64,000 nt of DNA from Bugula neritina (lineage: Eukaryota > Animalia > Bryozoa): assembly GCA_964035545.1 (NCBI GenBank), contig OZ037767.1, positions 22,150,628-22,214,627 of the forward strand, read 5' to 3'. Of the stretch, positions 31,701 to 64,000 are shown piece by piece. Position numbers and translations under genes: made by a program. The notes under the pieces are model-generated. The model saw only the letters and a list, made by a program, of their open reading frames with translations, did not search any database and was not told the origin of the DNA. Position 1 is the first letter of the stretch; each line of letters starts with the position of its first letter.

Positions 31701-33655
31701 ATCAAAGAAGTCTACGGGTAGACCGTCAATCCTATTGTTGCTCATAGACAGACTCACCAGAGACTCCATTGAACTGTTTGTAAAAATTACGTCCAGCATT
31801 TCAAAAACCTGAGACCAAACATAAGAAAAAGGTAAAAAAGAAAGTTGTGTCAAGGAAGTATGTATGAATTTCTATTTTTACATGAGTTTTTTATAGCAGA
31901 TAGACAAGGGCTCATGTGCACAATAGCATAACCAATCAAGATGCAGAATCCAAGTATATTTTCACAGTCACCAGCCAATTACTGCTCTTTCAACACTACC
32001 CTAAAAACCTCCAACCTGTTTCTCCCTAACACACATTGATACTGAGTTTGGTAATCAACTTGTTAAAAGCCGATGTTTGTAAATTTATGAAAAACAACAA
32101 ACCTCGCTAGAGTTTTTATCTGCTGTGGCCAATGGTGCAAAAGCATTGTTTAAAGACAGAGTGGTGAGCTGGGAGTGATTGAAAACCCTGGGATGGTCAA
32201 CATTGGCATTAAAGTTCCAGTCATTATCGTCTAAAATTAGAGTTTTCAAGTTCCTCATGTAATGGAAAGCCCCGGGATCAATTCTGCAGAGAAAAATAGA
32301 AAAAGACGTCTTCAAACCCAGATAAATAAAATTGAAGGATATCAACATTTTAAAGCAATGCGAAAATCATTGATTAAAACAAAAACATTTATTATCATAT
32401 TATAACCACACAACTGATTTCTTTTTCAATCATCAATTCTTAAATTAAATAAGTTGATTTATCTGCCAAGAAACAATAATTTAGAGGTAAAAAAACAAAA
32501 TATTTGTTGACTTTCATGAATTTTCAACATGAAAAAAATTAAAGGTAGTAGAATTTGATAAATAGTCTAGATATGAAGAGTGTGCATTTGTGTGAAAAGT
32601 TAGCAGAATGAGCATGCAATAGTTAATAGCCAAACTGCAAGAAACAGAAGGTGCAGTATAATTGGGGTAATTACCAATTGAAGTGAGCAGATATAGCAAT
32701 AAAATACCATAACTAATGAGCTCAATCACTGTAATTACATAACAAATTCTGATAGGTAATAAAGTGTTCTAGCAGACTGAATCTAAGCAGTAACTAGGAG
32801 AAACCTAAAGATATTGTACGTAAATTACTGTCTGCAATAAGTTTACAGTCTGCAGTACGAATGGGATGACCCACTTTTTTATGTTATTATTAGACAGGTT
32901 GTAGGTGTGGAGGCTATCATGGCGGACAGCTCCGAGAGAGTTTCTGCCCAGATATGGAATATTGTGCCCAGTAAAGACAACTTTTGTAAGATTAGGATTC
33001 CTTTGCCCAAAATCTTGAAGATCTTCAAATGCTATAACATATATAGATATGTGAAATGAAAAACAACTTGATAAAGATAATTTAGAATAAAATTAAACCT
33101 GCAAGGAGACAGCGGTACCTGGCTGCCTTAACCAAATAAGACAGAATGCCGCAGGGTACAAGAAGCACTAGGAGTGGGTGGGACACAATGAATTGAAAAT
33201 TCACATATTCCACAAAACTATAATTTAGCTGGTTTCTAGATAATCAAATAGAAATTATTTGTATTTGAGAATTTAACAAAAAACGAGCAGGTGTAAAAAA
33301 AAATTTGGAAAAACACAGGCTGGGTGAAGCTCATCAATCATTTTAAAAAAACGTAACAAAATTTAGTTAATTATTAGCTCAAAGTTTTCAATGAGCACTT
33401 GATTCCTGAACAATAAATCACACTAAAACAGCAGACTCTAAAAATTCATACTGATTTTTGTTGCTCCGGTTATAAAAAGTGAGCTTAATTGTTTATACAG
33501 CTTTTGTAGATCTAAAGAAAGTGTAGGAAACACTAACTCATGTGATCCTGAGAGTTGCTGCATACTAGCTCAGTGTCCGACTCAGTGCAGTGGAGAATTA
33601 CAGAAGGAATGATTCCAACAATGAGTATGACGGAAGACTGGAGTAATATTAGCAT
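28726..33655 (-). CDS. Trophoblast glycoprotein (TPBG/5T4/WAIF1)-like LRR transmembrane protein; exons 33655-33538, 33031-32875, 32283-32103, 31808-31651, 31267-31119, 29547-29426, 28962-28726; 373 aa
   Basis: The seven exons join in phase (1122 nt). They encode a signal peptide MLILLQSSVILIVGIIPSVILH, LRRs, LRRCT (KNPIACDC...WRWL...LTC), and TM YIVLGVVLGIVGAIAMVILFLNR. The TM resembles the TPBG TM (recalled as YVFLGIVLALIGAIFLLVLYLNR). The tail contains tyrosines. Confidence 0.82.
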
Positions 33656-34203
33656 GCCTAAAACAATCGACACATATAAAACGCCTGAAGTGTTACGAGT
33701 ACTACTAACAAAAAATATTTACATGCACACAAAAGATGGAATTATTTTTGAAAAATTGAGATTTCCTGTTTTTTTTACATGAATGTAAATTATATATAAC
33801 ATGATTCAAGACACAGTTGCTTCTTTTTGCCTAAACAAAGTGGTCTACCTTTACTCATTCCCTCCTAAGAAAATAATTAAAAATGGGGCACTATCAATAA
33901 ATATAAAATAATATACGTTAACATATAATGTATATTAGCAAATTTCAACTTGGAAGTAATAAGTTCCCAATGGCAATATAATTATTATATTGCCGATGGG
34001 ATTGACTTGCAAACCTTTTATAGCATCTTTCCTAGTTTTTACTATTTATAATTATTTTTATACTAAGAAAGTTTTACATTGGTTGGTCAGAAAGGAAACA
34101 ATGTCAACTGGGTTTAGACATCTGAAAACAAATAACAAAAATAAAATTAAATAATTATTACTATAACTATTAGCAATTATTATTATGAGAATCACTATCA
34201 TAA

Positions 34204-34509
34204 TGTGGTGGCTCGTGGAGCTACCAGCAACACAATACGCAAGGTTGCGTATTGACCCGGAACCATGTATTAGCCAATTAGCTAGGTTGTTTTATGAGTA
34301 ATAGTAGCAGCTTCGCGCTACTAGCTCAGTTGAGGATAGTGCTGTAAATTAAATAGACGTGCGTATCATTACTGTTGTACATTAGATTTTATTATGTATT
34401 CTTGTATTAAAATATAACGATATCTACTCGACTTAACTCGGTGAAGTTTCTCTAGTGATAAATAGACTCTCTTGGTGGCACATCGATCCTAAAACTGAAA
34501 ATCATAACA
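34204..34509 (+). repeat. 5' LTR (306 bp)
   Basis: Begins TGTGG and ends TAACA. Identical to the 3' LTR except 34487 T versus 41630 C. Confidence 0.97.
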
Positions 34510-34510
34510 G

Positions 34511-34528
34511 TGGTGGCAGCGGTGGGAT
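34511..34528 (+). promoter_or_regulatory. Primer binding site complementary to the 3' end of tRNA-Leu (AAG/TAG type)
   Basis: TGGTGGCAGCGGTGGGAT lies 1 nt after the LTR. It is the reverse complement of ATCCCACCGCTGCCA-CCA, the 3' end of metazoan tRNA-Leu(AAG). Confidence 0.88.
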
Positions 34529-34542
34529 AGTGTACATCAAAG

Positions 34543-35709
34543 ATGGAGACTGAAAATGCTAGAATGCAACCACCCCCAGTAGAAGGTGAGCGTAGAAATG
34601 CTGTTAATCCTGTAAATCGTGAGGGAGAAGAAGCTTATAGACATTGCTTGAAAGCTCCCACCTTTACTGGGTCGGAAGATGTCGAACAATTTATACAAGA
34701 ATTTAGAGAGGTAATGGAGGTTGCTCAATGGCCGCATAGAGTGGCCCTTATCCAATTGCGGAGAGCGGTGACGGAACAAGCCAAGCCGTACGGAGTGGGA
34801 ACGGACGTAAACGGGATACTGGCTGCGCTGCGGGCCCGTTTTGGCATCTCCGCAATAGACGCTAGGACCAAGCTGGAGAGATTGTGCCGCACCCCGCGGA
34901 CCTCGCTGCAAGAACATGCCGCGACGGTGAAGAAGTTGGCGCAGATTGCATATAGCGATCTGCCAGCACAACACCAAGAGCGTTACACCTATGACGCCTT
35001 TGTCCAGTCACTAAACGACCTGGGCTTACACCATCAACTACGAGCTAAAGGGATAACCAGAATAGAGGATGCCCTGAAGGCTGGAGAAGCTTACCTGTTG
35101 GCTACCCAAATGCATCAAGCACGACGGAACCCACCAGTAGTTGGAGTCAGCGCTGCCAGGGCTACGACAGGTCCCGAAGCCCTCCCGCTAGAAGCCGAAG
35201 TGGACCGTATGGTAGAGATGCTGGGACAACTGGTAACCATTCTGGCCGGTGCTGGCCCCGGTCAGGCCCTGCGGGTGCCCCCAACGCCTGTGGGGCAGGG
35301 CTGGAGTAGCGCTGATCAGGACCAGGGACAGAAAGGACGACCCCAATATCAGGGGGCGTTAAACTGTCACGGCCCGCGGACACTCCCTCCCCGCGGGCCG
35401 CAACTGAAGGAGTATGGTGGGACACGCCGTCGTCTGTCCGTACGGACACGACGGAACACTCCACCCGAGTGGCAGGTACCACGCAGGACTAGTAGGCCCG
35501 CACAACGGCCGAGTACCTTCTCCCTGCCACTCGCTAACCGGTTCCACCGGTTACCTCGGGAAGAGGAGCCCGCCACTGAAATGGAGCCAGAAGGCCCAGT
35601 GGAGAGCCCCAAACCCCGCCGGCACCAACCTCGCCGCCGGAAGCCCCGTAAACCACGGGTGAAACCCCCGCCGTCCTGTCAATTCAGGATAGCACATGCG
35701 GGGGGGTGA
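34543..35709 (+). CDS. gag: Gag (388 aa)
   Basis: First ORF after the PBS. It has a capsid-like region (KAPTFTGSEDVEQFIQEF...W...LRARFG...SLQEHA...LAQIAY) and an Arg/Pro-rich C-terminus, with no intact CCHC. Confidence 0.9.
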   Translation: METENARMQPPPVEGERRNAVNPVNREGEEAYRHCLKAPTFTGSEDVEQFIQEFREVMEVAQWPHRVALIQLRRAVTEQAKPYGVGTDVNGILAALRARFGISAIDARTKLERLCRTPRTSLQEHAATVKKLAQIAYSDLPAQHQERYTYDAFVQSLNDLGLHHQLRAKGITRIEDALKAGEAYLLATQMHQARRNPPVVGVSAARATTGPEALPLEAEVDRMVEMLGQLVTILAGAGPGQALRVPPTPVGQGWSSADQDQGQKGRPQYQGALNCHGPRTLPPRGPQLKEYGGTRRRLSVRTRRNTPPEWQVPRRTSRPAQRPSTFSLPLANRFHRLPREEEPATEMEPEGPVESPKPRRHQPRRRKPRKPRVKPPPSCQFRIAHAGG

Positions 35710-38700
35710 AAGTACAACCACATGGAGAGAGCTATTTCCTACCCGGAAAGGTGACCGGCAACGCCGTCACTTTCCTGCTCGACTCCGGTTGTACTACCAA
35801 CCATCTCAGTCGTAGAGTCTTTGAGGCACTGCCCCGCCGGGACAGGGATAGAGTACGACCGTATACTGGGGAACATGGCACCCTGGCAGACGGGTCATGT
35901 ATTCCCTTTTATGGTATTATCGAGCTCCCTGGGCGTGTCAGAGACCAGGCTGTACAGGAGACCTTTGTCATAGGCCAACTGGAGGAAGATGCTATCCTCG
36001 GAATGCCCTTCTTGAAGCAACACCAGTGCCGAATAGACTTTAGCAAGTCGGTGGTGCTGATGGGCGGGCGAGAACTCGCCTGTGTGGATAAGTTTGGGCG
36101 TCCTCTGGTGGGCGGTGTTCAGGTAGTTCGAAACTGCACCGTGCCCGGACGCTCCAGAGCTACTATCCACTGCCGAGTGAACAGCAACCGGATAGCCAGG
36201 CTCGGGGTCGTTGAAGGCGCGCACGAAAGGATCCAACTCGCCAGTAGTTTAAACCGACTAACTGAGCGAGGGGAGGTCTTAGTGCAGTGTGTCAACCCCT
36301 TTACCGAGCCCATTGAGCTCCCAGCTGGATCAATGCTGGGCCAGTTCCACTCCGTCCAGGAAGAGGACGTGGGCCCGTCGCTAGGTGACGCGACGGAGGC
36401 ACCCCCTCGACACCCTATTCAGGGACGAGGGGCAGTCCCAACACATCTCCGGGAGTTATATGAAACAGCCTGCGGCGGCTGCGCGAGTAACAGAGAACGC
36501 CAAGTTATGGCTAAGTTACTACGCGACTACGGTGATGTGTTCAGCAGCGGAGAGCATGACGTGGGACTGACTGGAATTGTCAGACACGAAATACCGCTGA
36601 CTGCAGGGACAGTCCCTGTCCGGCAGCCCACACGCAGGCTGGGGCCGGAGAAAGAGAAGGAGGTTAGCCGACAAGTACGGGATCTTCTGGACCGGGGACT
36701 GATAGAGCCCGCCCATAGTGCGTGGAGCTCGCCAGTCGTACTGGTCCGGAAGAAAGACGGCAGTTGGCGGTTCTGTGTGGATTACCGCAAACTCAATAGC
36801 GTAACCATACAGGACGCCTACCCTCTACCTCGTATTGACGAGTCATTGGACGCCCTAGCCGGCAGCAAGTACTTCAGTACGTTAGACTTGCTAAGCGGCT
36901 ATTGGCAAGTTCCTCTGAGTCCCGACGCCCAAGAGAAGGCGGCGTTTATCACACGGGACGGGCTGTGGAAGTGGAAGGTGCTGCCCTTCGGGTTAACCTC
37001 CGCCCCAGCCACCTTCCAGAGGCTGATGGAACAAGTCCTTAGCGGACTCCATTGGAAGACACTGCTGGTCTACCTCGATGATGTCATCGTAATCTCTCCA
37101 GACTTCGAGACACATGTCAGTCGTCTGCAGGAGGTTTTCGAGAGACTCCGAGGTGCCGGTCTTAAGCTCAAACCTTCCAAGTGCGCTCTATTGCAGCCGG
37201 AGGTCAAGTACCTGGGGCACGTTGTTGGTCGAAACGGCGTGGCAACGGATCCTGAAAAGGTACGGGCGGTAGAAGACTGGGTCACCCCCCAAGACTTGAC
37301 CGGACTCCGGGCTTTCTTGGGGCTGGTAGGGTATTACAGGCAATACATACCGGACTTTGCGGGCATAGCCCAGCCGTTAAACCGGCTCACCGCAAAGGGA
37401 GTGACGTGGCAGTGGACCCCAGTCGAACAAGAAGCGTTCGACCGCCTCAAGGGCTGCCTACTAACGGCGCCCATCTTGGCCTACCCAGACCCCACTCTGG
37501 AGTACATCCTCGACACGGACGCCAGTGACCAAAATGTTGGCGCTGTGCTGTCACAAGTGCAGGAAGGCCGAGAGGTAGTAGTAGCCTACTACAGCAAGTC
37601 TCTCTCACCCGCTGAACGAAATTACTGCACTACCCGCAAGGAGCTGCTGGCAGTAATCAAGTCAGTGAAGCACTTCAGACCATACCTATACGGCAGGAAG
37701 TTCCGGCTGCGTACGGATCATGCCTCGCTGATCTGGTTGTGCAAGAGAGCAGAGCCCTCTAGTCAGGTCGCCCGGTGGCTCGAAATCCTAGCTGAATTCT
37801 CATACCGGATCGAACATCGACCGGGCAAGAGACACAGCAATGAGGATGGGTTGAGTCGCCGACCTGACGGAGGTTGCAAACAGTGTCTCAACATCGAGAG
37901 GAGGGATGGAGGTCCCCCGCGATGCGAGTTGGAGACGCTGGCTCATCACGGAGCACCGTTTGACTGGGACCAGGGTCAACTCAGGCAAGGAGTTGATGAG
38001 TCCCCGGAGGATGTACAAAACCTCCGCGCCAACCCTGTACTGGCCGGTAATGTTCGAGAGCTGAAGAAGCTCCAAGAAGAGCTGCCTGGAGTCGTGGCAG
38101 ACATATACCGGGCCAAAAGGGAAGGGCGACGACCCAGCGAGGAACGCATACGACAGGGATGCGCCGAGTTCCGGCTATACTGTCAGCGTTGGGACTCGCT
38201 GCGGATCGGGCAGGATGGGTTACTAACCATCTCCCTAGCTGCCAGCGGCAGACACCCGGAAAGGAAGAGGGTAGTCTGCCCCACGGCCATCCGCCGTGAG
38301 TTGATTTGGGATACTCACAAACAGGCCCACGCAGGGGTCAAGAGAGTGATATCCAAATTACGACTCCGGTGGTATTGGCCGCAAATGGAGCGTGACGTCC
38401 GACTCAGAGTCAAACAGTGTGAGATCTGCCAGGCCAGTAAGCATAGCCGCCCCCCTGGTGAAGCAGGACGGCGGAGGCTATATGCTGGTAGGCCCTGGCA
38501 AGTAGTCGCTGTAGACCTGGTCGGACCCATGCCCCTGACCCCCAGAGGCAATAATTGGATCCTAGTACTAACCGACCACTTTACTAGGTGGGCGGATGCT
38601 CTGGCTATCCCAGATGCATCAGCCCCAACAGTGGCCAGGGCACTAGACCAACATGTATTCTGTTATTTTGGGCTCCCCGAACAGATACACTCTGATCAAG

Positions 38701-39350
38701 GCGCTCAATTCCAGTCTCAACTGATGAGCGACCTTTGCCACCTCTGGGGAGTAAATCAGAGCAGGACCACCCCCTACCACCCTCAAGGTAACGGGGTGGT
38801 GGAGCGCAACAACCGGATGCTAGGTGATGCACTCCGGAGTCTCCTCCTTGGACGAGGTCAAGAGGAATGGGATACGGTGTTGCCGCAAGTCATGCGTGCA
38901 TACCGTAGCACCCCACACACCAGTACTGGTGAGACCCCAAACCTCTTGATGCTCGGGAGAGAGACTCGTGTCCCTGACCATCTCACCTATCACGTTCCAG
39001 AGCAAGACAACTCGGTTCACGAGTATGCCAGCGAACTAGTGGAACGGATGAAGGCCGCACACGATATACTGCGCGAACAGCAGTGGAAGGTGCGGCACGA
39101 AGATTCCGATGAACCACCTCTCTACCAAACGGGAGATAAGGTGTGGATGGTCAATTACCGTAGGCGCCGCGGACAGGCTGATAAACTGAAGCCTAAGTTC
39201 GTAGGACCTTACGTGATCGTCGAGGCTATGCCCAATCATACGTACAAGATTGAGCGCTCAGGACAGGTGTCTATCCAAAATGAGTCTCGCTTGAAACCGT
39301 ATTGGGCTGACCCGGCGGAGTGGGAGAAGCCCCCCCCCCCCCGTTGTTAG
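35706..39350 (+). CDS. pol: Pol polyprotein: aspartic protease, RT, RNase H, integrase (in the -1 frame relative to gag)
   Basis: Protease FLLDSG; RT WRFCVDYRKLN, LPFGL and YLDD (37071); RNase H TDAS, ELLA, TDH and NEDGLSR; integrase HHCC (THKQAH...CEIC), D-D-E (VDLVGP, SDQG, VERNN) and GPY motif. Confidence 0.95.
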   Translation: MKVQPHGESYFLPGKVTGNAVTFLLDSGCTTNHLSRRVFEALPRRDRDRVRPYTGEHGTLADGSCIPFYGIIELPGRVRDQAVQETFVIGQLEEDAILGMPFLKQHQCRIDFSKSVVLMGGRELACVDKFGRPLVGGVQVVRNCTVPGRSRATIHCRVNSNRIARLGVVEGAHERIQLASSLNRLTERGEVLVQCVNPFTEPIELPAGSMLGQFHSVQEEDVGPSLGDATEAPPRHPIQGRGAVPTHLRELYETACGGCASNRERQVMAKLLRDYGDVFSSGEHDVGLTGIVRHEIPLTAGTVPVRQPTRRLGPEKEKEVSRQVRDLLDRGLIEPAHSAWSSPVVLVRKKDGSWRFCVDYRKLNSVTIQDAYPLPRIDESLDALAGSKYFSTLDLLSGYWQVPLSPDAQEKAAFITRDGLWKWKVLPFGLTSAPATFQRLMEQVLSGLHWKTLLVYLDDVIVISPDFETHVSRLQEVFERLRGAGLKLKPSKCALLQPEVKYLGHVVGRNGVATDPEKVRAVEDWVTPQDLTGLRAFLGLVGYYRQYIPDFAGIAQPLNRLTAKGVTWQWTPVEQEAFDRLKGCLLTAPILAYPDPTLEYILDTDASDQNVGAVLSQVQEGREVVVAYYSKSLSPAERNYCTTRKELLAVIKSVKHFRPYLYGRKFRLRTDHASLIWLCKRAEPSSQVARWLEILAEFSYRIEHRPGKRHSNEDGLSRRPDGGCKQCLNIERRDGGPPRCELETLAHHGAPFDWDQGQLRQGVDESPEDVQNLRANPVLAGNVRELKKLQEELPGVVADIYRAKREGRRPSEERIRQGCAEFRLYCQRWDSLRIGQDGLLTISLAASGRHPERKRVVCPTAIRRELIWDTHKQAHAGVKRVISKLRLRWYWPQMERDVRLRVKQCEICQASKHSRPPGEAGRRRLYAGRPWQVVAVDLVGPMPLTPRGNNWILVLTDHFTRWADALAIPDASAPTVARALDQHVFCYFGLPEQIHSDQGAQFQSQLMSDLCHLWGVNQSRTTPYHPQGNGVVERNNRMLGDALRSLLLGRGQEEWDTVLPQVMRAYRSTPHTSTGETPNLLMLGRETRVPDHLTYHVPEQDNSVHEYASELVERMKAAHDILREQQWKVRHEDSDEPPLYQTGDKVWMVNYRRRRGQADKLKPKFVGPYVIVEAMPNHTYKIERSGQVSIQNESRLKPYWADPAEWEKPPPPRC

Positions 39351-39985
39351 AGCCCAGGAGGCAGACAACAACGCGCGGGCGACGGCGGCATGGACCTGAA
39401 TACGAAGTGGTCATACCGCGGGAAGAAAACTTGGTGAGAGAGGAGCGGCAGCTTTTGTCAACAGAAGCGTGTCCGCCACCGCCAAGTCTAATTCCATCAC
39501 TTCCAGAAACCGAGCCGGTTCCGGAAGTGCAAACCCCCACGGAGGGAGGGGCTCCATCCGGAGAACAAGAAGAGGTGACCGCTAACGGTGAAGTAGAGAC
39601 GCCATTAGAGGCCCCTACTAACGAACCGGCAAGCGTGTCACCCCCCCTAGAAAGGGGACAGCATACGAGGAAACCCCCACCATATTTAAAAGACTTCGTA
39701 TGTGACTGCATTAGAAGCGGCGCACATGAAAGTCTAGGGGAAAACCGTACGATAAAATGTTGGAGTTGTGAACCCCACGCAAATATCAACTTTTGCGAGG
39801 GCGGAATAGTGGGAGGAATTAATGCGCGTAAAGCAAATAGTTCCGACCTCGTGCCTCAGAAACGATGCTCAGCCTTTTCTTATGCTGACATCGCCAAAGG
39901 CAGACGTATCTCACAACCAGCTCCAATCTTACCAAGAACGTTGAGTATGGACATTAATACCGAGTTCCCAGGTAAGCCAGTATAA
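39320..39985 (+). CDS. Probable C-terminal extension of Pol/integrase, separated from pol by a 1-nt frame break near 39315
   Basis: Overlaps the pol end and has no ATG at its start (GTG). It is a Pro/Glu-rich linker containing RGQHTRKPPPYLKDFV, similar to the RxRKPPxYLxDY motif common at Gypsy integrase C-termini. Confidence 0.6.
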   Translation: MGEAPPPPLLEPRRQTTTRGRRRHGPEYEVVIPREENLVREERQLLSTEACPPPPSLIPSLPETEPVPEVQTPTEGGAPSGEQEEVTANGEVETPLEAPTNEPASVSPPLERGQHTRKPPPYLKDFVCDCIRSGAHESLGENRTIKCWSCEPHANINFCEGGIVGGINARKANSSDLVPQKRCSAFSYADIAKGRRISQPAPILPRTLSMDINTEFPGKPV

Positions 39986-40002
39986 GTCTTGTATTCCTAT
40001 TC

Positions 40003-41076
40003 ATGGAAACGGGCTCGATGCCAGTAAATTCTGAACTAATTCAGCAGATTGAATCAGAATTACTGGGAACCACGTTTCATGTGAATGACGATGAAGACAC
40101 TGTAATGGCCGACGGTCTGTTAGACCTGGAGCTAGACACTGTTCTTGGTCAGTCCACACATGATTCATCGGTTCCTCGAGTGCATTCCAAAAGCTGTGAC
40201 TCTCAGGCTAGCAACGGTCGACAGTCACTAGAATTATGTTGTAAAGATCCACCGCGATCTAACAATAATTCTACTTTTGTAGACACACTCGCGCCCGTCT
40301 CTCCGGGCATGCCTTCTCTAGAGATGGCGTGGGACCCAGAGCCGGCCCCAACAACTTCTACAACAAGGCAACTGCCACCCCAGTTGGAAGCAACCTCCAA
40401 CTGGATTACCCCTGCCACAGAGAGAGAGATTAGGACCCATCAAGGAGGTGAGAGTAATCGTGAATGCAACCTCTGCCAGCAGCGATTCACAACCCACCGC
40501 AGACTGAAAGTACACTTGCCGCAACACTACATCACCACTTTCTGCCCTTGCGGAGAATATAGCTATAATCGTGATTACCTACTGCGGCACCAACGTACTA
40601 TGCAGTGTTATCAAGGGCATGTCTATGAAGTAGACGAATCATCCTATCCTGCCTTTCTCAACGCCATCAAACCACTCATCACTGACTCAGCTCGGCTATC
40701 TCGCCTGGAGCAAGGCTTCCCTTCCCCGCGACTCATCATCTCTGGAGCCGCAGATAAACCTACACAGTCTACTAACTCTCCACCTCACAGTCCTCTACGC
40801 ATACCGCATACCTTTCCTCGTGTCGTACTACAGAGGGTAGACACAAATGCGTATACACTCCCTCCTCCCCTTCCATCCTCAGAGCGGAAAAGACATAGAC
40901 AGCCGACTTCCTCTCACTCGTCCCCCTGGGCCCGCAACCTACGTGAAGTAGAAGCTAGGGCACACGACTTGGAGCAAGAAGTGTACAGACTGGCCCCACG
41001 GGTGCAGGCTGCATCCAGTGAACTCAAATATTTACAGGAGTCTATTAAACGCATGAAGCGTGCGGCCCGCAGTTAA
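40003..41076 (+). CDS. Accessory ORF of the Gypsy element: 357-aa zinc-finger/coiled-coil protein (not Env)
   Basis: Intact ATG-TAA ORF between pol and the PPT. It has an acidic N-terminus, C-x2-C-x12-H-x3-H (CNLCQQRFTTHRRLKVHLPQH), a second finger CPC-x11-H-x5-C, a basic RKRHR patch and a C-terminal heptad region. There is no signal peptide or TM. Confidence 0.85.
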   Translation: METGSMPVNSELIQQIESELLGTTFHVNDDEDTVMADGLLDLELDTVLGQSTHDSSVPRVHSKSCDSQASNGRQSLELCCKDPPRSNNNSTFVDTLAPVSPGMPSLEMAWDPEPAPTTSTTRQLPPQLEATSNWITPATEREIRTHQGGESNRECNLCQQRFTTHRRLKVHLPQHYITTFCPCGEYSYNRDYLLRHQRTMQCYQGHVYEVDESSYPAFLNAIKPLITDSARLSRLEQGFPSPRLIISGAADKPTQSTNSPPHSPLRIPHTFPRVVLQRVDTNAYTLPPPLPSSERKRHRQPTSSHSSPWARNLREVEARAHDLEQEVYRLAPRVQAASSELKYLQESIKRMKRAARS

Positions 41077-41335
41077 CTTGAGTCTATCTCCAACTCCATA
41101 CTACTCTTCCCCTACCTCTCTGTGGCATTCCCTACCGTTATGGTGGCACGTACTCTACATGTAGATAGGACCTTCTCTTACTTATTACGTATTGTGCACG
41201 TTATATATACCTGTATATTTTATCAGTTGTTGTTTTTTTTGTATATACTTTTATACTGTTCTCTTACCCCCCCCCCCAACGAAGTATACGTTTTTTATGT
41301 GAAATTTATTTTTATCAGAAAGAGGGCTTTCTGCT

Positions 41336-41346
41336 GGAGGGGGCAG
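41336..41346 (+). promoter_or_regulatory. Polypurine tract
   Basis: GGAGGGGGCAG immediately precedes the 3' LTR. Confidence 0.8.
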
Positions 41347-41652
41347 TGTGGTGGCTCGTGGAGCTACCAGCAACACAATACGCAAGGTTGCGTATTGACC
41401 CGGAACCATGTATTAGCCAATTAGCTAGGTTGTTTTATGAGTAATAGTAGCAGCTTCGCGCTACTAGCTCAGTTGAGGATAGTGCTGTAAATTAAATAGA
41501 CGTGCGTATCATTACTGTTGTACATTAGATTTTATTATGTATTCTTGTATTAAAATATAACGATATCTACTCGACTTAACTCGGTGAAGTTTCTCTAGTG
41601 ATAAATAGACTCTCTTGGTGGCACATCGACCCTAAAACTGAAAATCATAACA
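41347..41652 (+). repeat. 3' LTR (306 bp)
   Basis: Direct repeat of 34204-34509 with 305/306 identity, followed by the ATAA TSD. Confidence 0.97.
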
Positions 41653-43054
41653 ATAATGCAATATGAATATGAATATCAATATCATATTCATATTACTAAT
41701 TAAATTTGATCTCCAATGACATCGAATATTTATACTTATAGCTATAGAGAACTTATGCTTACTTATAGTTATATTAACTTACAGTTATACTTATAGTTAA
41801 ACTTAATGCTACAGCATGAGCATAAGTATAAACTAAAGTATAGTGTTAATCATTAATGACAATGTTTATGTTATACTTATAGAGTTATATTTATACTATA
41901 ACTTATACTTATAGTATTAGTATTACTATTAGTTAATGTTAACTTGATCTTCATACTGCAGTATGAATATTAGTATTACTATCAGACATCAGCATCACTC
42001 TCAGTCTCACTGTCAGACTGTGATTCACTTTCCAGTTTCAGGATTAGCATAATAATTTAATTAAATATAACATTATTACCATTAATAATAATATTTATAA
42101 TCATAATGTTTAAAATTAATCATAATCACAAACTGATAATAGCATTATCATTATGATTAAATTTAATGATATTTAATTTGATAATCATAATGATTGACAA
42201 TCATAATCATAATCATAATGCTAATGCCGTAAATGCGTAAGTTTATAAACAGGCTGCTACTAGTACTAGTATTATCATTACTATTAGTAATACTACAGAA
42301 TATCAACATAATATTAACATCACTATTCACAGGGTTAAACTTAAAGAGTACACATTAATATATCACTCTGTCACTAACAGTAACTAGTGCAACTTGACTT
42401 CTGTGTCTATTTCTAAGCCGTAAAAAAGACCTGGGCACACGGGATACTTTATTCGGGAGTTATTCTCACACTCTCTTTTACTTATGTGAACCAAAGGGTT
42501 AAGCAGCAATCCATTACTCCGATGCGAGCCAGTAGCTCTTCAAAGCCAGAGGTCGGAATTCACTATTATTGGCCAGGTTCTATTCACAGCATCAAAAACA
42601 CAGGCTCTTATTGGACAAATAACAATAACATTAAAAATGAATCATCTCTGTTTTGATGAGGGTATGGATATCAATGAGGAACTCAGAGTCAGTGTCATGT
42701 ATTAACATTATCATTATGATAAGCTGTATCGTCGCTCTCTTTGATATTATTGCAATGTGATTTATCATTAAGCTATGCTCATGCTGGTTGTGTAAAACGT
42801 TAGACTAGCATTTACACTAAGTACGAGTTCTTAGGATTAGAACCTCAACCTGAATAAAACACTCCTACTCATAACTCACCTCGTAACTCACCTTGTAAAA
42901 ATTAGAACACTCTGCTAACACCTACAGGCGCAAAATTATGAGTGCCTCTTATGTTGTTTTTGTTTGAGTTTACCATGTGTTGAAATGTATCTATTCTAGC
43001 ATGTAGCTAAGTTTGGAAATTTTAATTGCAATGTAAAGGGGTTTTAGCACATAG

Positions 43055-45757
43055 CTAAGCTGAGTTTGTGTTATGAGGTGGTATCCTCAAATCTCTGATG
43101 CTTCGAGGGAGAAAACTGTTGTGAAAGGTCTGTGAGGATGCAGGAATTGATGTTGGTTCTCCTCTCTTAGCAGATCGAGTGTTTATTGACCGGTTTGAAT
43201 TTAATAGTTCATCATAAGCAGATGAAAACGTTTCATGGCGCTCTTCATCTGAAAGTATTCTCATCAACAAAGTTATTCTATGGTCTCTTCGTCGGCTCGC
43301 AAGAGTTTTAAGCTGCAATTCAGTTCGAGCGTCACTGATGCCACGTCTTCCTTTGAGGTTAGCGATAAACCTGATAGCTTGATTTTGAACATGTTCAATT
43401 TCCTCACAGGCACTTTTGTTAGTCGGATCCCACAACGTGTCTGCATACTCAAAGATAGGTCTACATAGACTAAGGTATGCAATTAATTTTGCCTTCATGG
43501 GTGCATTGTAGATTGTATGCTTGATACAGCCAAGTATTTTGCTTGCATTGTTGACTTTAGATGTAATATGCCGGTCAAACTTTAGGTTAGACTGCATGAT
43601 TACTCCAAGATATTTGGCCTCTTTAACGGTTCTAAGAGTGGTGTCACCAAGTGAATATAGATGGGAGGTGTCATCAGTTTTACCAAATATAATCACTTCG
43701 CACTTATCGGTATTAAACGGCATTTTCCATTTAAGTGACCAGTTATAAAGTGAGTTTAGGTCTCTCTGAAAGGCTTCCTGTTGTATTTTGTTGTTAACTT
43801 CAGCATATAGAAGTGTGTCGTCAGCATATAGACTAACTTTGCATGAGACAGATTGAGGGAGATCATTGATGTAAATTAGGAAGAGTTGGTCCAAGAACTG
43901 ATCTTTGGGGGACTCCAGATGTTACACTTAGTTCAGATGATTCCGTCCCTTTGATCACCACTTTTTGACTTCTGTCAGTCAAGAAGCTCTGTATCCAATT
44001 GGCAATAAATGGGTCAATTCCTTTAATTCGCCTGATTTTCTCTATGAGTAGTAAATGAGGAACTTTATCGAAGGCCTTTTTAAAATCTAGAATTACTGCG
44101 TGAGTAGTTGATGAGTTGTCGGCTGCTCTTGCAATATCATGAAAAGTTGCACACAATTGAGTGTCACATGAAAGGCCTCGTCTAAATCCATGTTGTCTAT
44201 TAACCAAAATTGAATCTAGTGTTTTATTTAGATAGTGTAATATAATATGTTCTAGCATTTTGCAGGGGATACTTGTCAATGAAATAGGTCGATAATTGCA
44301 TGGCTTCTCTTTTTCACCTTTCTTATATATAGGAGTGATGTTGGCAGTCTTCCATGCACCTGGGAGCACACCTTGTTTTAATGAAGCAGCGAAGATATGC
44401 TGAAGACACTCTGCATTGATATTAGGGTTTAGTAGTAATTGGCATTTGCGGATCTGGTCTGGGCCGGGTGATTTATTATTTTTAAGGTCAACAATAAATT
44501 TTTCAACACCATCTAATGTGATGGGAAATGGTTCTGTTTGAGTTGAAAGTAGTGGGAGTTTTGATATACTTTCTTGGTGGCAGAACTGTGAGTGAAAGTA
44601 TTTATTTAGTTCGTTGGTGATTATCTTACTGTCAGTGATTGGAAGGCCATCCATAAGTGTCATGGTCTCTAAAGGATGCTGTTGATTTTGTTTGTACCTA
44701 AGATGTTTGTAAAAAGGTTTGCTGTTCCCCTTTTCCAAGGGCTTACAAATTTTATATAGCAAATAATTTCTTTTGAGCTTTTTGAGTTCTTTCTTGTTGT
44801 TCTGGCGGTGCTGCTTATATTTATTCAAGTAGTATGGATCTCCAGTTTGTTTGTACTTTCTGTGTGTATTGTGTTGCTTGTCTATCATTTTTTTAATATG
44901 TTTGTTAAACCAAGGTGGTTGATCTTCATTTCTGACATGTATAGTTTTGAGTGGAACAGAATCAAGTATGGCTTCATCAAGTGATCTTTTGTAAATATCC
45001 CACATTTTATGAACGTCACTTAGGTTTTTAATTTGATGAAGAGCATTAGTCATTTTTTCAGTAAAGACTTGAACGTTTGCCTTCTGATAGACCAAGATTT
45101 CCTTGGTATTTTTACATTTGTGTTGTTGGTGCATCATTGTTTCTACTTTAAGCTTCAGGGTTATAATATAGTGGTCGCTTAGGCCAGGGATTACCACATC
45201 TGGGGGATCTGTTGTAAGGGTGCTAGAGCGGCATATCAGATCAAGAGTGTTTCCGTGAATGTGTGTAGGTTCTGTAACCATCTGGTATAAGTTATGTTCG
45301 TAAAGCATGTTGAGAAATTGTAGATGGATAGCTTTGTAGGATGAATTGGGTTTAATAGTTTTGGTAACTCAGTCTAGTCCTGGAAGATTCATATCACCAA
45401 GTAAAATGATGTTGCAGTTGGAATATTTATATTTGATGGAGCTAAGTATGTTACTTATTTGTTTGATATTTGGAGTTGATGTCCTCGGTCTATAGTAACA
45501 ACATATAACTAGGTTAGTTGGAAACATTTCTGGCGTTAAGCTTTGCCTTGATTGCAATTATAACTCCTCCTCCGTGCATGTTTCTGTCATTTCTAAAGAA
45601 GTCTAAACCAGGTGTTTCGATTACAGTCTTGCTGAGAATAGATTGATCAATATGCGTTTCTGTTAAGCAGATCAAATCATAGTTTTTAATTAGAGTGGTG
45701 ATTTCTGCTGTTTTTCCTTTGACTGACCTGACATTAGCAAGAAAAAGATTTAGATCT
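43055..45757 (-). pseudogene. LINE ORF2 (AP endonuclease + reverse transcriptase), disrupted
   Basis: APE motifs LANVRS, LTETH, RNDR..GGGV, YYRP, GDMN, PTH..TLDL and SDH; RT motifs YRPISLTS, QHGFR, LDFKKAFDKV, GVPQR and YADD; C-terminal NSFLPRSIRD. Lesions: frameshift near 45525, TGA at 45369-45371, frameshift near 43890. Confidence 0.9.
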
Positions 45758-46750
45758 GAGATTGTTTTGTTTGTTGGTCTTCCGGTTTCAACTTTTCCCA
45801 GTTTCCCGATTCAGCTTTTATTGAATGTTGAAATCCCTGATTCGAAATTGTATGGTTTGGCTGCTCCTCTTTAAGTTGTTTAACCTGTTGGCGAAGAGTG
45901 TACTTTTTGTCCCTGGTTCCTTTGTTCATGTCCAGCTTGCAGAACAAAGAGTCTGCGCGCAAGGCATGATTTAAAAATTTCCACTCGGACCTTTCATCTT
46001 CAAATCGCAGTTTTATAGGGCGATTTTTGTTTTCAGTCTTAGGACCGAGCCTAACTGCTTGAACTGGCTTGTTGAAATTCTTAAATAGTTCTTGGGACAT
46101 TAAATTCATCACATCTTGCATTGCAGTATCTCTTTCAGTTAGTCCATACAAAATTGCATTGGATTTCCTCGCTTCGTTGTCCTTTTTGTCCATCTCTGAT
46201 GCCAGTAGTGCTTGGCTGGTTGTGGTCATTTGCAGGGTTTTTTTGTGTTATTTGCAATTTCAGTGTTTTTGCTGGTAATATCAGCCCAGGTTTTTTGGAG
46301 GGTACTGACTTCTTCATTGCTGTGTTGATGGTATTTTTCTAACTTTCTCTCAAATTTAAAAATTTGTTGATTAATGCTGTGAAGCATTTTCAAATGTTGT
46401 GTATTGCCACCATCATCTTTTTGAGAGGAACACTCATCACAAAACCACCTAACACCTCTGTCTGATAGTCTAGTGATGGAATTCACCTCAGATGGCTGGA
46501 GGCCCTGGCATGTTCCATGGTACCATTTTAGGCACACATCACAGGATATCCATTTTGAAGCAGCTTTTTGTTGTTTTCCGCCTTTAGTGAGAAGAAAACA
46601 TTCTTTTTTGGAGCATGATGCGCATAACTCATTTAGGTCTGTATTGTTGTCATCTGTAGTAGATTCCAACTGAGAGCGTTGCAGAGGGGGAAAGTCACCT
46701 CCACTATGACCAATTTGGTCTTGAGACTGAGTGAGTGTGGGGAGTGACAT
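45750..46750 (-). pseudogene. LINE ORF1 (PHD finger, coiled coil, RRM-like region), frameshifted
   Basis: PHD: CASC...WISCDVCLKWYHGTC...WFCDEC. Then RKSNAILYGLTE...RLG...RPIKLRF. The frame breaks at the A7 run (~46238-46244), with further lesions near 45850. Confidence 0.85.
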
Positions 46751-48958
46751 ACCTATACTTATAATATTTAATTCAAAGTGATACACCAAAACTATCAAGT
46801 GTTAGGGCTATCAATGACCAAGCTAGGCGCTATCAATATCACTATGAGTATGATTATCATTACAAACTTAAACTTGAAGCCAAAACTATACTAGTAGTAG
46901 TTGTAGTTAGGCTATGTAGGCGTAAGCAGAATGTCTAATTTGAGGTATTTTTATCCTTTAGTCCAAGATGAATTCACACAAATACTTTAATCTAAAGCTC
47001 GGTTGTTTAAAAATACTGTCCTAGTCCTACGCCTACGGCTACTACTACTAGTATTACTACTAAGTACTAAGTACTAAGATTCTGAAATAGAGTTTCAGTT
47101 GGTCACACTCACTACCAGTTACACTTAGTCTAAGTCTTACCCTCTTGAATTGTAGATTAAGGTAAAGATGTAATATTAATATTATAAACATAATTTATTA
47201 ATAATTATCAATAAACATTAATTATTTAAACACTAATACTAATAGTTAATGTTATATCAAATTGAAATTCAATATGATTTTATGACTCCTGTTTTTTATA
47301 GTGGACTTGTAGTTGTTTGTTATTAAATTCAATAATTATATTTATTGATTATTCTAAATTAGTAATTCATCTATTTCTAATTCTATAGCTATTAATCTAA
47401 TTTTTTTTTATTATACCTCATCAGATATCGTGATTCTGATCATTTTACTTATTCTTATAGTTATAGTGATTATGATTATGTTACTTTTGCTTATAGTTAT
47501 ACTTGGAGTTATAGTCAATCATTGAGTCGATGTCATGCTCATGGTGATGAATGATGATTATAATGATAATGGATTTCTATTCATAATGATCCACAATCCT
47601 ATGCTGACACCAATCATTACAAGTAGACTATTAGGATTTGACTGTAAGCAATAGTGTAATGTATAAATACTACTACTACTATAGACATAGTTTCAACAAA
47701 CTTTAATCGCTTAGGAATACGGACTGATGAATGGGGTATGTCGCTCAACATTCTCAGAACTAAAATTATGGCTTTTAGTTTTAATCCTGCACAAGACCTA
47801 CCGGAAATACACACATCAAAGTCTTCATTAACTCTGATTGTAAATTTGATGTGCATATTCATAAAAAAAGATTCTAAATTAAGCAAGGAAACAACCTGGA
47901 ATGATTAAAAAAATCAATACACTTGATGCCACGGCATGCTAGTTGACTCGTGCATTAGACCCTAGTCTATGGCTACCACTTCTAGAAAATGCTTGTGCTG
48001 TCTAGAACCCATGTTGTAAAAGTGACACTGCCAGCTTGGAAGATGTTCTGTCAGAAGCTGCTTGCTAATCTGCAGCATAAAACTATGGAAAAGTAGGAAC
48101 TCGGCTATAGATAAACTTGGAATAAAGCCACTGGCATCTGGAAGAAAAAATCAGTGCATCTTTCTACTTCTCCAGATTTTGTCCAAAACGGAATACCACT
48201 CGGCAATCACTGAATCATTTTAGCACCTGGTTAGACAAACATTGTGAACAACTTGGGTTATGTCTTGAGCTCAAGGAACTTTATGTTCAATTAGTATAAG
48301 CAAAAATAAATATTACAATTAGAGATTTGAATATTGGATCAAACAAAGCAATCACAACATGGTCCCATAGTGTATTCTTTTCAAAGACAGGCCAACCAGG
48401 CTTGTCTTAAATTAACTATAAATTATAATAATCATATAGCCTACTTACTTACTACTGATACATACATGTAACCCATGAATAAAATGTGGCACATTCTTCC
48501 TACCCAACTGGGCGAAGAAAAAGCTGAAAGGTATCATTTTAATTATGATTATCAGTATCACTTTTAGTTTGAGTTTGGCTATGGCATTTAGTTGGACTAT
48601 TAGCTATGTCGAATAAATCTAATCATTACACATAAGAGTCAGAGTTTTTAAGAAGTACAGTTGGTAATTTACCGGTTTTATTAAGTAGTACAGTTATTGC
48701 TAACAATGTTGTAAGACAATCATAAAGGTTAAAAATAGTTGATAATTTTTCAATATCATTGTAAAAAAAACTGTTGCCTTATTTGATATATACAATGAGG
48801 ATGTTTATTATGTAGGTTTTACTGGCTAATACACCATTATCTCATCTATAGTGCTGTATACTAGTATAGGTAAAATACCCATATAGTGCATTACACTGTT
48901 GATTATTATGAGTGCATATTTTATTGACGTTTAAGCTTTGATACACACAAAGTAAGAT

Positions 48959-51900
48959 ATGATTGGAGCGGCTGCTGGTCAACCAGTTGTGGTGAATGGG
49001 CATTCAATGCAACCACCTATGCAGCAGTACGTTGTGCTTAATCCAGCCCTTGCACAGCCGGCCAATACCAACCCGACGGTCAGGTCTAAAGTGGAGTATT
49101 CTGCAAAGAACCTCAGCACAGTCAAATGGTAAGTGTCTTCACTTACACCGATCATGTGTTTGTACATTACTGAAACATGTTAGTTGACTGCTGGCTATAG
49201 TTATGGTACTTATCAGCAGCTGTTACGGTATCTAAAAGTGGGTCTATCATATTATTAAAAGTGAATTATGTCATTTCACAAACTTGCGAATAGTTGGTAA
49301 TTTTGCTTTCAAAACATGATATTTTGAAGCTATACGTTAGTTCTCAATTAAGCAGCCTTCTTGTATGCATGTTTTATCTGTAGCGTGTTTTATCTGCACA
49401 CACAGTTCTTTATCCTCAGGAAGTGTAAACCGCTCTTGAAATCTGCTGAAATCTTCCTAACTTTGATTTAGTTTGCCTGATTTAATTTAATTTATTCTTC
49501 AGTATAAACGAGCCCAGTTTATATTTTTATTTAGTTAAAAGTCTGCAGTTTATATGTGTATTGTTTTCAACTAACAGAAATCTCTGTATGAGGTTTGTTG
49601 AGCAGGAGTATTTTACTAATAAAGTTGTACTTCCTGTTACAAGAAACTGGTGTTGAAAAATCATCCTTTTCTTTTCAGGCTCACGGTCGCTCAGTTGATG
49701 CTGGCCTGCGCTATTCTCATATTTCACTGTGTCACCACTGCTCTGAATGATCACTTCTCTGCCACCTTGGCTAGAATGTCAAGGTTTACTAAATATGACA
49801 TCTTTGACTACTATACTACCTTTGTCGACTCGGATGCTACCGGCATATGGGTTGGAGTTCTGGTGAGTCATTTGTAATCTTTGCTCGGTAAGCTACTTTT
49901 CAGATCGAGTGAGTAAGTAAGGTATTGGATTGTGCTGGTTTTATGTTTTATTGTTGGGGTTTTAACTCCTATGAAGAGATTTGTACTACTTTATATTCTT
50001 GACTGAAGGCTAGATGCCCACATCACTGTTCCACTGTCAGTATGACACAGCACTGTAATGGCCATTGTCATATATGCACATTATGCGTGAAGCAGTTTTA
50101 CTAATGTTTTGTATACATTAATATGCCCATTGTGGCTGTTGTTGATGCTGGTCTCTGTTTTACAGGCTATCATCGCTGCTGTGATTGGAATACAAGGGTA
50201 CAAGAAACAACGCAAGGGCCTAGTGAGCATTAAACATGTATTTCATACATACTTAAGATAATCAGCTTTATTAGCCTTACATTTATGAGCAGTAGTGGAA
50301 AAGTTTCAAATGCATAAGCTCTTTAATTTTCTTGATAATTTTCAGTTGAATTTCTCATGAAAGTAAAACTTGTGGTGCAAAACTTCAATAAACCTGCACT
50401 CCAGGAAGTTTGGTGTTCTCATATAAGAAGATCTCTCTACTAGCACCTGGAATGAGAAAATATATAATCATAAACTAGAAGTTTCTTTGTAAATTTGCAG
50501 CTCAAGCATAAACATGCAACACTCTTTGTTGCTTACTAATACTAATAGAATTAAATGAACCATGAATGAATGAGTTCCTTATATTCCTTGAAATCTGCAG
50601 TAAATCTACAGCATATGTAATTGCCTAACATCTATACCACAAAACCATGGGTTACTTGAACTCTCAAACTAATTCAATGTTCTGTTGCAGATTATTACTC
50701 ATCTGATATTCAATGTTTTGCTGCTGTTGTGTCACTGTGCTGTCATAGCCACAGTCTCTCTAACTATTCAAGAGTTGAACTACTGCAGGCATAGCGGACA
50801 GTGGTACTATTACCCCAGGTGATACACTAATCACTTTACTGCTTTGGATTTGTAACCTACTGACATGCCATTGTTAAAGCCTTGGTTATCAGCATTACTA
50901 CGCCATATTTAACATGTTGCATGGTTTATTAAACATGCCAGTTTTGATGTGACTTCATAACTTCATGACTGCAGCTGTCTTACTGTTACTGTGCAATATA
51001 GAATTACTAATATCTTGTTTTCACAAAATAAGGTATTTTTATGTTTTCATTTGGTAGTGGTTCTCCCCCCCCCCCCCTGATTTTGTTTTCAGTCAAGTAT
51101 AATATTTAAGTTTATGCTTTAGTTCGTGTCTACATCTTATTGGTTTTAAAATTGTGCCATTATAATAGTATATTGTTGACCAGCGCTAGTTCCTACATGT
51201 TTTCTCTAGTTCAAAATGTTTTTTCTTTGCATGTTTTACTCAGTAGAATGTTGCATGAATTGCACAATAGCCTATGATTAGGTAATAATTTTGTTACAAT
51301 TTATACAGGGTATAAGATATGGCATATTTAGGTAGATATTTATGCTAGTTGAACATTATTCACAACTGCAGTCATTTTTTTAATGAAAATGTTTACAGCT
51401 ACAACAGTTACAACTACTACGGTAACAGCTTCTATGGTACTACCACAACTACTACTACACCAAAACCTTTTCTGTTTTTTGGTGAACAGCTGACAGGGTT
51501 CCGTGGAAACTATTATTGTACTGGTGTAAGTTTTGTTCTACATTTACAGTAGATATTTTATTTTCCATATGATCTCAAGTCTTGAACGCATGACCAATAA
51601 TTTTTGAAGTTGTCTTTCCAAAGGCAAGCATAACTTCTTATGCAACTCATATTGAATAAATTTTGTGTCAGGTTTCTGTGAAGACAGAATCTGGTCATGA
51701 GCAAAACATTGAATCATTCTAAACATGGGTTTTAGCAATCAGCTTGCCACCAGCTTATGTACATATAACATACTGGTGGCCAATTTAAGTTGGTTGTGTA
51801 GCTGTGTGAAAATACAAACTCCAACTATGCAATAAATATTTTCCGTTGAATTTGTAGGTGATATTTAAAGCATGGTTAGCTTTCGATTGTGTGGTACTCG

Positions 51901-53156
51901 TCTGTGCGATAGTGTCATTCTTTGTGACATTCGCGCTGCTTGTGTACAACAGCACCGCCGCCTGCCGTCGCTGCTGTGTGGGAGGATGCTGCAGCTGCTG
52001 TACTAAACCAACAACTAATGTAAGGCAACTTCTAATTCTGACTGAGTTGTTTAATACATACATTTTATTTACGTTTAAATGCAAATTATAAAATTGTTTC
52101 GAGACAAATGTGATTATGCAGATTGTCATCAATTACAGATAAGTGATGAAAGTCTGAGATGGCATCTCTTCTACTCAAGTTGTAATTAGTTCTTATCAGA
52201 GCTCATGTGCTTTTTAAGTAGAATTCCGGTGTTGCATTTTAATCACATTTGATGACCTTTTGAAAAATAGTATGAGTTGAGAGTTATTGATGAAAACGCT
52301 GGTTACATTTGCCGATCTGTAGTTATTGCACAGTAGTGTCTTTTGGTTGTGAACTCAAGTAGCTGGTGTGTTGTAATAGTTTGTTACACACCAACAAGAT
52401 AGTAATTAATTAGTATTTAAATGTAAGATTTGCTGAACATTATTTTTACACTACACACTACTAGAGAAAGCTGGTGCTTAGAGATAGGTGTAGTGCATAA
52501 ATGTTTATAGTAAATATTTTCAATAAATGCATCTAATAATAATATTTATATAATTTGTGTTTTACAGGATGGAATGATGGTTGCATACTACGCCCAGCCA
52601 GCCGGTCAACCAATGATGACAAACACAGCTGTGGTTGGACAACCTTCATTCTTTGGTCAGCACGGGGCAGTGCCAATGTATGCTCACCATGGGCCACCCG
52701 TTGTGATGACAGCAAACAATCAGTATGCTGCCGCTATGCAACCTGGAGCTGGTGGCGTACCTGTAGCACCACTAGTCACGCCAACTTCTGCTGTCATGAC
52801 CCAATCAGCACCTGCTGGTGCAGCATCTAACCAAGGTAAGCCTGATTGTTGGTTCTATTCCTAAATCAACCATAGATGGAACAGCTGACTTCTTTTTGGT
52901 GTAATAATTTTGTTATTGAAATAGGAACTAAATAGAAAAAGTATGCAACTTTTTGAAATTATGCCTACACTTAATCGGAAATTATGAATGCTAATGCTAT
53001 ATTTACTTATCAGTAATGATATATGCAGCTTATATATTATATCTTCGTTGTTTGAACTTGGAGTTATCTTTCATTGTTTTTCTGCTGTGTAAAGATGAAA
53101 AATGGGAAGATTTGCCTCCAGAGTATGCCCAGGTGTTTCAAGGTCAGCAGATGTAG
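48959..53156 (+). CDS. MS4A/CD20-like four-TM protein, copy 1; exons 48959-49128, 49679-49862, 50166-50222, 50691-50818, 51399-51525, 51858-52019, 52568-52835, 53095-53156
   Basis: The exons join in phase. They give four hydrophobic segments (TM1 LTVAQLMLACAILIF; TM2 GIWVGVLAIIAAVIG; TM3 IITHLIFNVLLLL; TM4 WLAFDCVVLVCAIVSFFVTFALLVY), a Cys pair in loop 2, a Cys cluster, and a Pro/Gln/Met-rich tail ending DLPPEY. The family assignment rests on topology and the GIWxG motif. Confidence 0.75.
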
Positions 53157-63596: not shown

Positions 63597-64000
63597 GTAA
63601 GTATTGAATCCAGTTGTAGAAGTATGTTGGAGGAGCTGCGTAAGCCAGGGTAGTAGCAACCAGCCACCAAATCCACCAAATAAATTTATATCATAGTTGC
63701 CACTGCCTATTAAACAACACATAACCACAAAATGCTATAATATGATCACCTACTTCTTTTTTCAAAACTCTCTATGGAAAGATTTATTTGCGAACTATCG
63801 AAATACTGCTGCGCATGAGTACTTGGTATAATATATCTCCTGGAAGATAATTTATAAAAATATGTCAAGTTTTTAAAGCAGTAAACTCACATGTTAGTGT
63901 CATCCAAGGAAACTTGTGTAAGCTTTTGACTCCTTCATGCTCAACTTATTACATGACTCATTATTTTAGTCTATGAGTCATGCTTGGGCCATACAGTTTT

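Follow-up and report, generated by a model that had tools for sequence, protein, structure and literature searches.

A 64,000-nt stretch of Bugula neritina DNA (the window) contains an LTR retrotransposon of 7.45 kb (34204–41652) that harbors a third open reading frame, ORF3, between pol and its 3′ LTR, raising the question of what protein this element encodes in the position of env and what that protein does for it. The host element is a Ty3/Gypsy LTR retrotransposon, as indicated by its LTR pair, target site duplication, pol domain order, and Ty3-type reverse transcriptase (RT). The LTRs are identical at 305 of 306 positions (one mismatch) and have ATAA on either side as a 4-bp target duplication; an earlier reading of the sequence alone (the sequence-only reading) had called the element very young. 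The pol domains follow the Gypsy order (protease, RT, RNase H, integrase; Pfam), and the RT–RNase H region is nearest to Ty3 among solved structures (E = 5e-99, as compared to 4.5e-62 for the next structure and 7e-39 or weaker for the others). Despite its young LTRs, this copy presents a frame break in pol at a poly-C run near 39331–39343, and the pol tail continues in another frame as far as 39985. The gag-position ORF overlaps pol (34543–35709 vs 35652–39350) and showed neither a CCHC knuckle nor a match to a Pfam gag family; its length varies between sister contigs. The primer binding site (34511–34528), which we take to be of the tRNA-Leu type, found no matching tRNA in a look-up, and a search for it matched two unrelated contigs only. 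An IMG/VR contig (L002, 276–4988) has the same 18-base primer site together with a 1571-aa retroelement polyprotein; the zinc domain of ORF3, described below, was not found in it. One segment of the pol tail (39550–39669) presented an RNA folding z score of −4.3, the strongest among 33 segments with 30 shuffles each, and could be a cis-element. Elsewhere in the window, we observed a broken LINE-type element on the minus strand (43055–46801), with a PHD-finger first ORF and an RT second ORF spread over several frames, and, on the plus strand, one long frame encoding an LRR-Ig-FN3-like membrane protein of 663 aa (15800–17791), an exon whose coiled coil precedes 15-nt repeats of the PAAGN type (22481–23434), and tandem paralogous genes at approximately 7-kb spacing, in which hydrophobic exons occur together with a Cys-rich stretch and a tail rich in Pro, Gln, and Met (49600–63650).

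Table 1. Features of the retrotransposon and of ORF3, in window positions.
Feature	Position	Strand	Basis or remark
Target site duplication, left	34200..34203	+	ATAA
5′ LTR	34204..34509	+	306 bp, TG...CA
Perfect U3 palindrome, 10-bp arms, 2-nt spacer; candidate dimer site	34233..34254	.	shuffles
Primer binding site	34511..34528	+	read from sequence
gag-position ORF, 388 aa	34543..35709	+	assigned by position
pol: protease, RT, RNase H, integrase (zinc, core, SH3-like)	35652..39350	+	Pfam
pol tail with RKPPPYL motif, other frame past poly-C run	39311..39985	+	frame analysis
ORF3, 357 aa	40003..41076	+	open reading frame
Acidic-hydrophobic N-terminal patch, aa 10–48; candidate activation domain, also export-signal-like	40030..40146	+	
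Compact zinc domain, aa ~126–243, two C2H2-type fingers	40378..40731	+	conservation, model
Basic patch RKRHR, candidate nuclear localization signal	40885..40899	+	
Six-heptad coiled coil, aa 313–351, one long helix in model	40939..41055	+	
Polypurine tract	41336..41346	+	read from sequence
3′ LTR	41347..41652	+	
Target site duplication, right	41653..41656	+	ATAA

ORF3 starts 18 nt past the pol-tail stop and ends 270 nt upstream of the 3′ LTR; the sequence-only reading had described an intact sense-strand frame of 357 aa between pol and the polypurine tract, and such a frame is indeed present at 40003–41076. The longest frame in 2000 shuffles of the stretch from the pol stop to the LTR had 238 codons, as compared to the 362 observed. 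ORF3 is not Env, as the earlier reading had held: it shows no signal peptide or transmembrane anchor, its top 19-residue hydropathy is 0.58, and a value above 1.6 was found in none of 56 proteins, so neither ORF3 nor any of its 55 homologs contains a hydrophobic segment. Searches of Pfam, PDB, and viral models for a viral fusogen gave no match at E 0.001. AlphaFold2 predicted two confident parts, aa 121–240 and a helix at aa 308–356, with the remainder of the protein disordered.

The two fingers of the zinc domain are C155-x2-C158-x12-H171-x3-H175 (finger 1, 40465–40527) and C181-x-C183-x12-H196-x5-C202 (finger 2, 40543–40608). Finger 1 had been described as a canonical C2H2 finger; it has the C-x2-C-x12-H-x3-H pattern, but it falls below the Pfam cut-off (15.7 vs 25.2 bits), and the two fingers are not free-standing, as they sit inside one larger conserved domain. 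No Pfam family scored above its cut-off for ORF3 and, among 20 homologs scanned, only P0083 presented one (zf-C2H2_4). The linker between the fingers (YITTF) has 5 residues instead of the usual seven, without a TGEKP-type array, and finger 2 presents across the family as CxC-x12-H followed, 3–11 residues on, by C or H (120/131 motif matches). Modeled alone, the domain reached a mean pLDDT of 95 and a pTM of 0.86, with an N-terminal strand and helix, finger 1, the short strand-forming linker, finger 2, and a further strand and helices, in this order. The modeled finger pair overlays the DNA-binding pairs of ZBTB38, Kaiso, SALL4, and CTCF (rmsd 2.5–3.1 over ~50 residues, Z ≤ 3.4), with model residues 30–81 overlaying the ZBTB38 pair 6e94 at Z 3.4 and rmsd 2.8 over 52 residues. 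While these tandem pairs share with ORF3 two adjacent beta-beta-alpha fingers, the ORF3 domain has a short linker, a CxC knuckle, and a final ligand that is either C or H, features that together with additional strands and helices make it a single globular unit; among the fold matches listed, none covered the whole domain and none reached Z 5, all finger matches being weak (Z 3.4 at most), and full-length ORF3 yielded just generic helix or weak finger matches. Positions 2, 3, and 5 of the finger-1 helix are R or K in 84%, 82%, and 76% of motif matches and finger 2 keeps R1-D2; position 6 of the finger-1 helix is mostly V, which is not a usual base-reading residue and counts against DNA-reading, as do the presence of just two fingers, their short linker, their packing by additional strands, and the weakness of the fold matches. 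C2H2 fingers bind RNA and protein as well as DNA.

Around this domain, the fingers, the RKRHR patch, and the coiled coil all lie where the sequence-only reading had placed them, and the transcription-factor-like layout that it proposed (first an acidic patch, then the zinc domain, followed by a basic patch and finally a coiled coil) is found across the deep family. By scores of our own making, in which close relatives are counted many times, an acidic-hydrophobic 25-mer precedes the domain in 26/39 close homologs and in 18/33 other homologs (a group that includes a few close relatives) and follows it in 0/33 and 3/55, respectively; the basic patch lies behind the domain in 62/88 homologs and ahead of it in 6/73; and a heptad signal is present near the C-terminus in 43/62 homologs, some of these rows being redundant or truncated. 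The order of these predicted parts is conserved where the sequence is not. The a and d positions of the coiled coil are L,A,V,V,L,I and V,L,L,A,L,M, respectively; a homodimer prediction for aa 300–357 scored 0.10.

A word-index protein search identified 55 homologs of ORF3 among 2027 candidates (34–74% identity), and ten full-length homologs (49–74% identity) have a common start region. A search of 50%-identity representatives retrieved 213 clusters at E 0.001, of which 70 reach 1e-10 and 22 reach 1e-30; among the 150 of the 213 clusters that were listed, P0177 and P0179 are ordinary multi-finger proteins and were dropped. Eleven full-length proteins (55 pairs) presented 51–87% pairwise identity with frames open end to end, in protein searches that show intact frames only. 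Of 14 aligned rows, 13–14 retain W134 and each of the eight zinc-ligand positions, and identity to ORF3 amounts to 64% for aa 1–50, 63% for the zinc domain, and 53% for the coiled coil, as compared to 32% for the linker that separates these two domains; purifying selection leaves an identity profile of this kind, which is not a dN/dS. Six listed ORF3 differences fall on codon positions 1, 2, and 3 as 2, 2, and 2, which is too few to be informative. Decay of ORF3 in sister elements, which the sequence-only reading had named as a refutation of its proposal, was not seen among these homologs, which are conserved and intact in searches that show intact frames only. With close homologs, 213 clusters, and near-invariant zinc ligands, the protein comparisons indicate that ORF3 is a conserved family gene. 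No DNA loci of the family were found in viral contigs (close alignment, pol queries), and in metagenome contigs two alignments gave 368 and 149 pattern matches, none of which was confirmed. In the ESM Atlas, unnamed clusters scored 0.91–0.95, including some from Basidiomycota (0.94 against the zinc domain, by features and without alignment), which may be generic finger likeness.

Indirect evidence from sister sequences suggests that ORF3 travels with the element. Summed contig depth in sequencing run X1 was 25,000–40,400 in ORF3 bins and 35,700–51,000 in gag bins, as compared to approximately 120 in the flank; this depth does not give a copy number, and the window itself may derive from X1. 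In this run, coverage by many sister sequences is about as complete for ORF3 as for gag. A single X1 contig skips 39734–41312, so copies without ORF3 exist, and runs X3 and X4, where the shares were small, contain related elements at lower identity only. P0181 is a pol tail, 71% identical over a stretch of 94 aa, that runs on into the N-terminus of ORF3, and P0087 joins a pol-tail motif to the zinc domain; both look like deletions. In P0174, which is far off in the tree, a motif that we take to be pol-tail-like lies ahead of the domain in one frame (BLAST E 0.38, not significant); P0174 and P0190 were considered as a conserved pol fusion and not retained, as their N-termini align poorly, leaving a hint.

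Contigs from RNA run X2 cover parts of gag, pol, and ORF3 and leave the flanks uncovered; over ORF3, they span 40728–41003 with 19 differences in 276 positions and a depth of 2.6. Because a repeat present in carried-over DNA could produce this pattern too, transcription of the element is only hinted at. ORF3 might be expressed from a spliced RNA, from an internal promoter, or by re-initiation 18 nt past the pol stop. Donor-like sites were found near 34583, early in gag, and near 39969, and an acceptor-like site near 40321. Among the 15 of 192 contig joints listed, none is a credible splice junction leading into ORF3; X1 joints from 34528/34529 were not accepted as splicing, as their sides are just 20–24 letters long and they lie at the shared primer site.

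The zinc domain is also found in bryozoan proteins annotated as host genes. Four of the 26 clusters looked up carry a species name, and all four are bryozoan, from Watersipora subatra (XP_067940963/XP_067940964, XP_067944745) or Bugula neritina (EB796_000763, EB796_000764). These uncharacterized proteins are true homologs of the zinc domain, and XP_067940963/4 and EB796_000763 also end in a coiled coil; they differ from ORF3 in being annotated as host genes, are undescribed, and in some cases have isoforms or doubled domains. XP_067940963, the closest named protein, matches ORF3 in the domain only, twice, at 45% and 42% identity; ORF3 is therefore no recent capture of this gene. Capture of a host exon had likewise been named as a refutation in advance, and no recent capture from any named host gene was found. 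A fast, unrooted tree built from 114 domain rows, its deep nodes weakly supported, included 10 of the 60 close-family rows and omitted P0177 and P0179; host-annotated bryozoan genes appear in it at three places, and repeated domestication by the host would be a simpler reading of this pattern than capture from the host.

The reading that we tentatively favor, with a probability of roughly 0.45, is that ORF3 encodes a nuclear, probably dimeric, DNA-binding protein that activates the element's own LTR promoter. An acidic patch, a zinc domain, a basic signal, and a coiled coil, as predicted here from sequence, together form the layout of a dimeric activator. The basic patch would carry the protein into the nucleus and the coiled coil would pair two copies of it; as a two-finger unit is expected to read few bases, a dimer on a symmetric site would be anticipated, and the two zinc domains would bind such a site, while the acidic-hydrophobic N-terminus would recruit co-activators. 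The candidate site is a 22-bp palindrome in U3, copied in the 3′ LTR at 41376–41397 and accompanied by a third half-site at 34360–34366. Palindromes with arms ≥10 occurred in 6/1000 shuffles, a frequency computed after the palindrome had been found. Both the likeness of its half-sites to host bZIP sites and its folding as an RNA hairpin count against an operator role. The outcome would be a positive feedback resembling that of foamy-virus Tas, but made from C2H2 fingers. Tas (Bel1), an acidic-class activator located in the nucleus, recognizes DNA sites within the virus's own LTR and internal promoter (PMC517496), and it serves as our working model for ORF3, in which the activation, nuclear, and DNA-binding parts are predicted. 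Unlike ORF3, it is retroviral, its acidic domain is C-terminal, its function has been shown, and zinc is unmentioned in the available portion of its description (PMC517496); we saw no homology between the two.

The chief rival to self-activation, and one that the sequence-only reading did not name, is RNA export, in which the zinc domain would bind unspliced element RNA, the coiled coil would multimerize, and the leucine-rich acidic N-terminus would act as export signal, in the manner of Rev or of CERV; we regard this as unlikely. CERV is encoded by Cer1, a Ty3/Gypsy element of C. elegans, and, as far as the available parts of its description go, it is, like ORF3, the product of a non-env ORF situated between the pol gene and the 3′ LTR of an animal Gypsy element and is a nuclear regulator of its own element, needed for RNA export, that combines a zipper and a basic signal with an export-like motif and a cysteine finger (PMC10309623), features whose ORF3 counterparts are predicted only. 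However, CERV has 517 aa, is spliced and shares exons with gag, contains a C4-type loop and no C2H2 fingers, a ring-forming M domain, and a G-protein-like domain, and is dispensable for transcription (PMC10309623, in the parts available), whereas ORF3 begins at a start of its own, carries two C2H2-type fingers behind an acidic N-terminus, and has a model consisting of the zinc domain and one long helix. Within ORF3, an export-signal pattern lies at aa 35–44 and is present in 6 of the 11 full-length proteins, but its final hydrophobic position is P or S in 5/11, and the acidic patch is long and variable in distant homologs, more like an activation domain than a fixed motif. The donor-like sites at about 34583 and 39969 could make export of unspliced RNA a problem for the element, and the folded pol-tail segment (one of 33) is a further point in favor of this reading; against this stand the absence of a credible joint into ORF3 among the contig joints listed and the overlay of its C2H2-type fingers with DNA-binding pairs. 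A less probable reading is that ORF3 binds element DNA or a host protein and lifts or blocks repression without activating directly. Its anatomy fits this role equally, plant Gypsy elements keep silencing-related extra domains such as AlkB and PMD (PMC9289625, in the portion available), and the bryozoan host-annotated genes, which share the domain and often the coiled coil, would make mixed dimers with host proteins possible; nothing specific points to silencing, though, and Pfam and fold searches identified no catalytic or chromatin-reader domain in ORF3.

More doubtful still is the proposal that ORF3 steers integration and, like a chromodomain, would tether the integration complex to selected sites in chromatin or DNA. 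ORF3 begins 18 nt behind the pol stop, pol-tail and ORF3 sequences are joined in P0181 and P0087 and perhaps in P0174, and the donor-like site at about 39969 and the acceptor-like site at about 40321 would connect the pol tail and the zinc domain in frame (1 chance in 3). Yet close homologs have their own conserved start, the first two joined proteins look like deletions and the motif in the third is not significant, the acceptor site is not kept in the protein pattern of the homologs, and no long pol-fused form was found among 7985 candidates of 729–2080 aa, although this last argument is weak. Least probable of all, and in our view very unlikely, is that the element took up ORF3 from a host gene and carries it along as a passenger, to no benefit of its own. 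Host-annotated genes with the domain do exist in Watersipora and Bugula, but the closest named gene is only 42–45% identical and in the domain only, and coverage by the X1 sister sequences is about as deep over ORF3 as over gag. In addition, the eleven full-length proteins have diverged to 51–87% identity and still have open frames and kept ligands, whereas neutral drift would be expected to break the frame many times, a point that applies to searches showing only intact proteins.

Third ORFs other than env have already been described for several Gypsy lineages, which makes the presence of ORF3 less of a surprise. Bdelloid rotifer LTR elements have non-env ORF3s (PMC5408684), plant Gypsy elements have the extra ORFs mentioned above (PMC9289625), and the planarian element Burro has an extra gene (PMC6431247). 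In the portions of these sources available, such genes are, like ORF3, fixed in Gypsy elements, often in the env slot, but they encode esterases, exonucleases, membrane or coiled-coil proteins, demethylases, and apoptosis domains (PMC5408684, PMC9289625, PMC6431247); the same portions contain no C2H2 transcription-factor layout, the word "finger" does not occur in that of PMC5408684, and that of PMC8556966 contains nothing on extra ORFs. A full-text literature search, outside which most subscription papers lie, identified neither a C2H2 third ORF in an animal Gypsy element nor genes of bryozoan elements. Bryozoan repeats are reported to be largely unclassified in the available part of one source (PMC13326412), and the ORF3 family may already be catalogued in Repbase, Dfam, or GyDB. 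The protein alignments point to a real, conserved, and apparently undescribed accessory gene family with activator anatomy.

To our knowledge, only a minority of the additional ORFs in LTR retrotransposons have an assigned function; the one that has been worked out in an animal is CERV, an RNA exporter. Regulators of their own expression are well known from complex retroviruses, and one was not found for animal retrotransposons in the literature searched; ORF3 is a candidate activator of this kind. In a broader version, which we consider doubtful, an old and diversified bryozoan Gypsy lineage would encode a sequence-specific transcription factor of its own, based on an undescribed domain with two fingers and dimerizing on a palindrome in its own LTR; the element would be a "complex" retrotransposon that reached the Tas/Tax solution independently of retroviruses, and its regulator would have been taken over by the host several times. 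A family-wide gene with predicted activator anatomy and a candidate site in the LTR offers a direct way to ask whether a retrotransposon, like complex retroviruses, can operate a transcription circuit of its own, and the zinc domain, which is absent from Pfam and common to elements and bryozoan host genes, may make the exchange of transcription factors between transposons and their hosts tractable to study.
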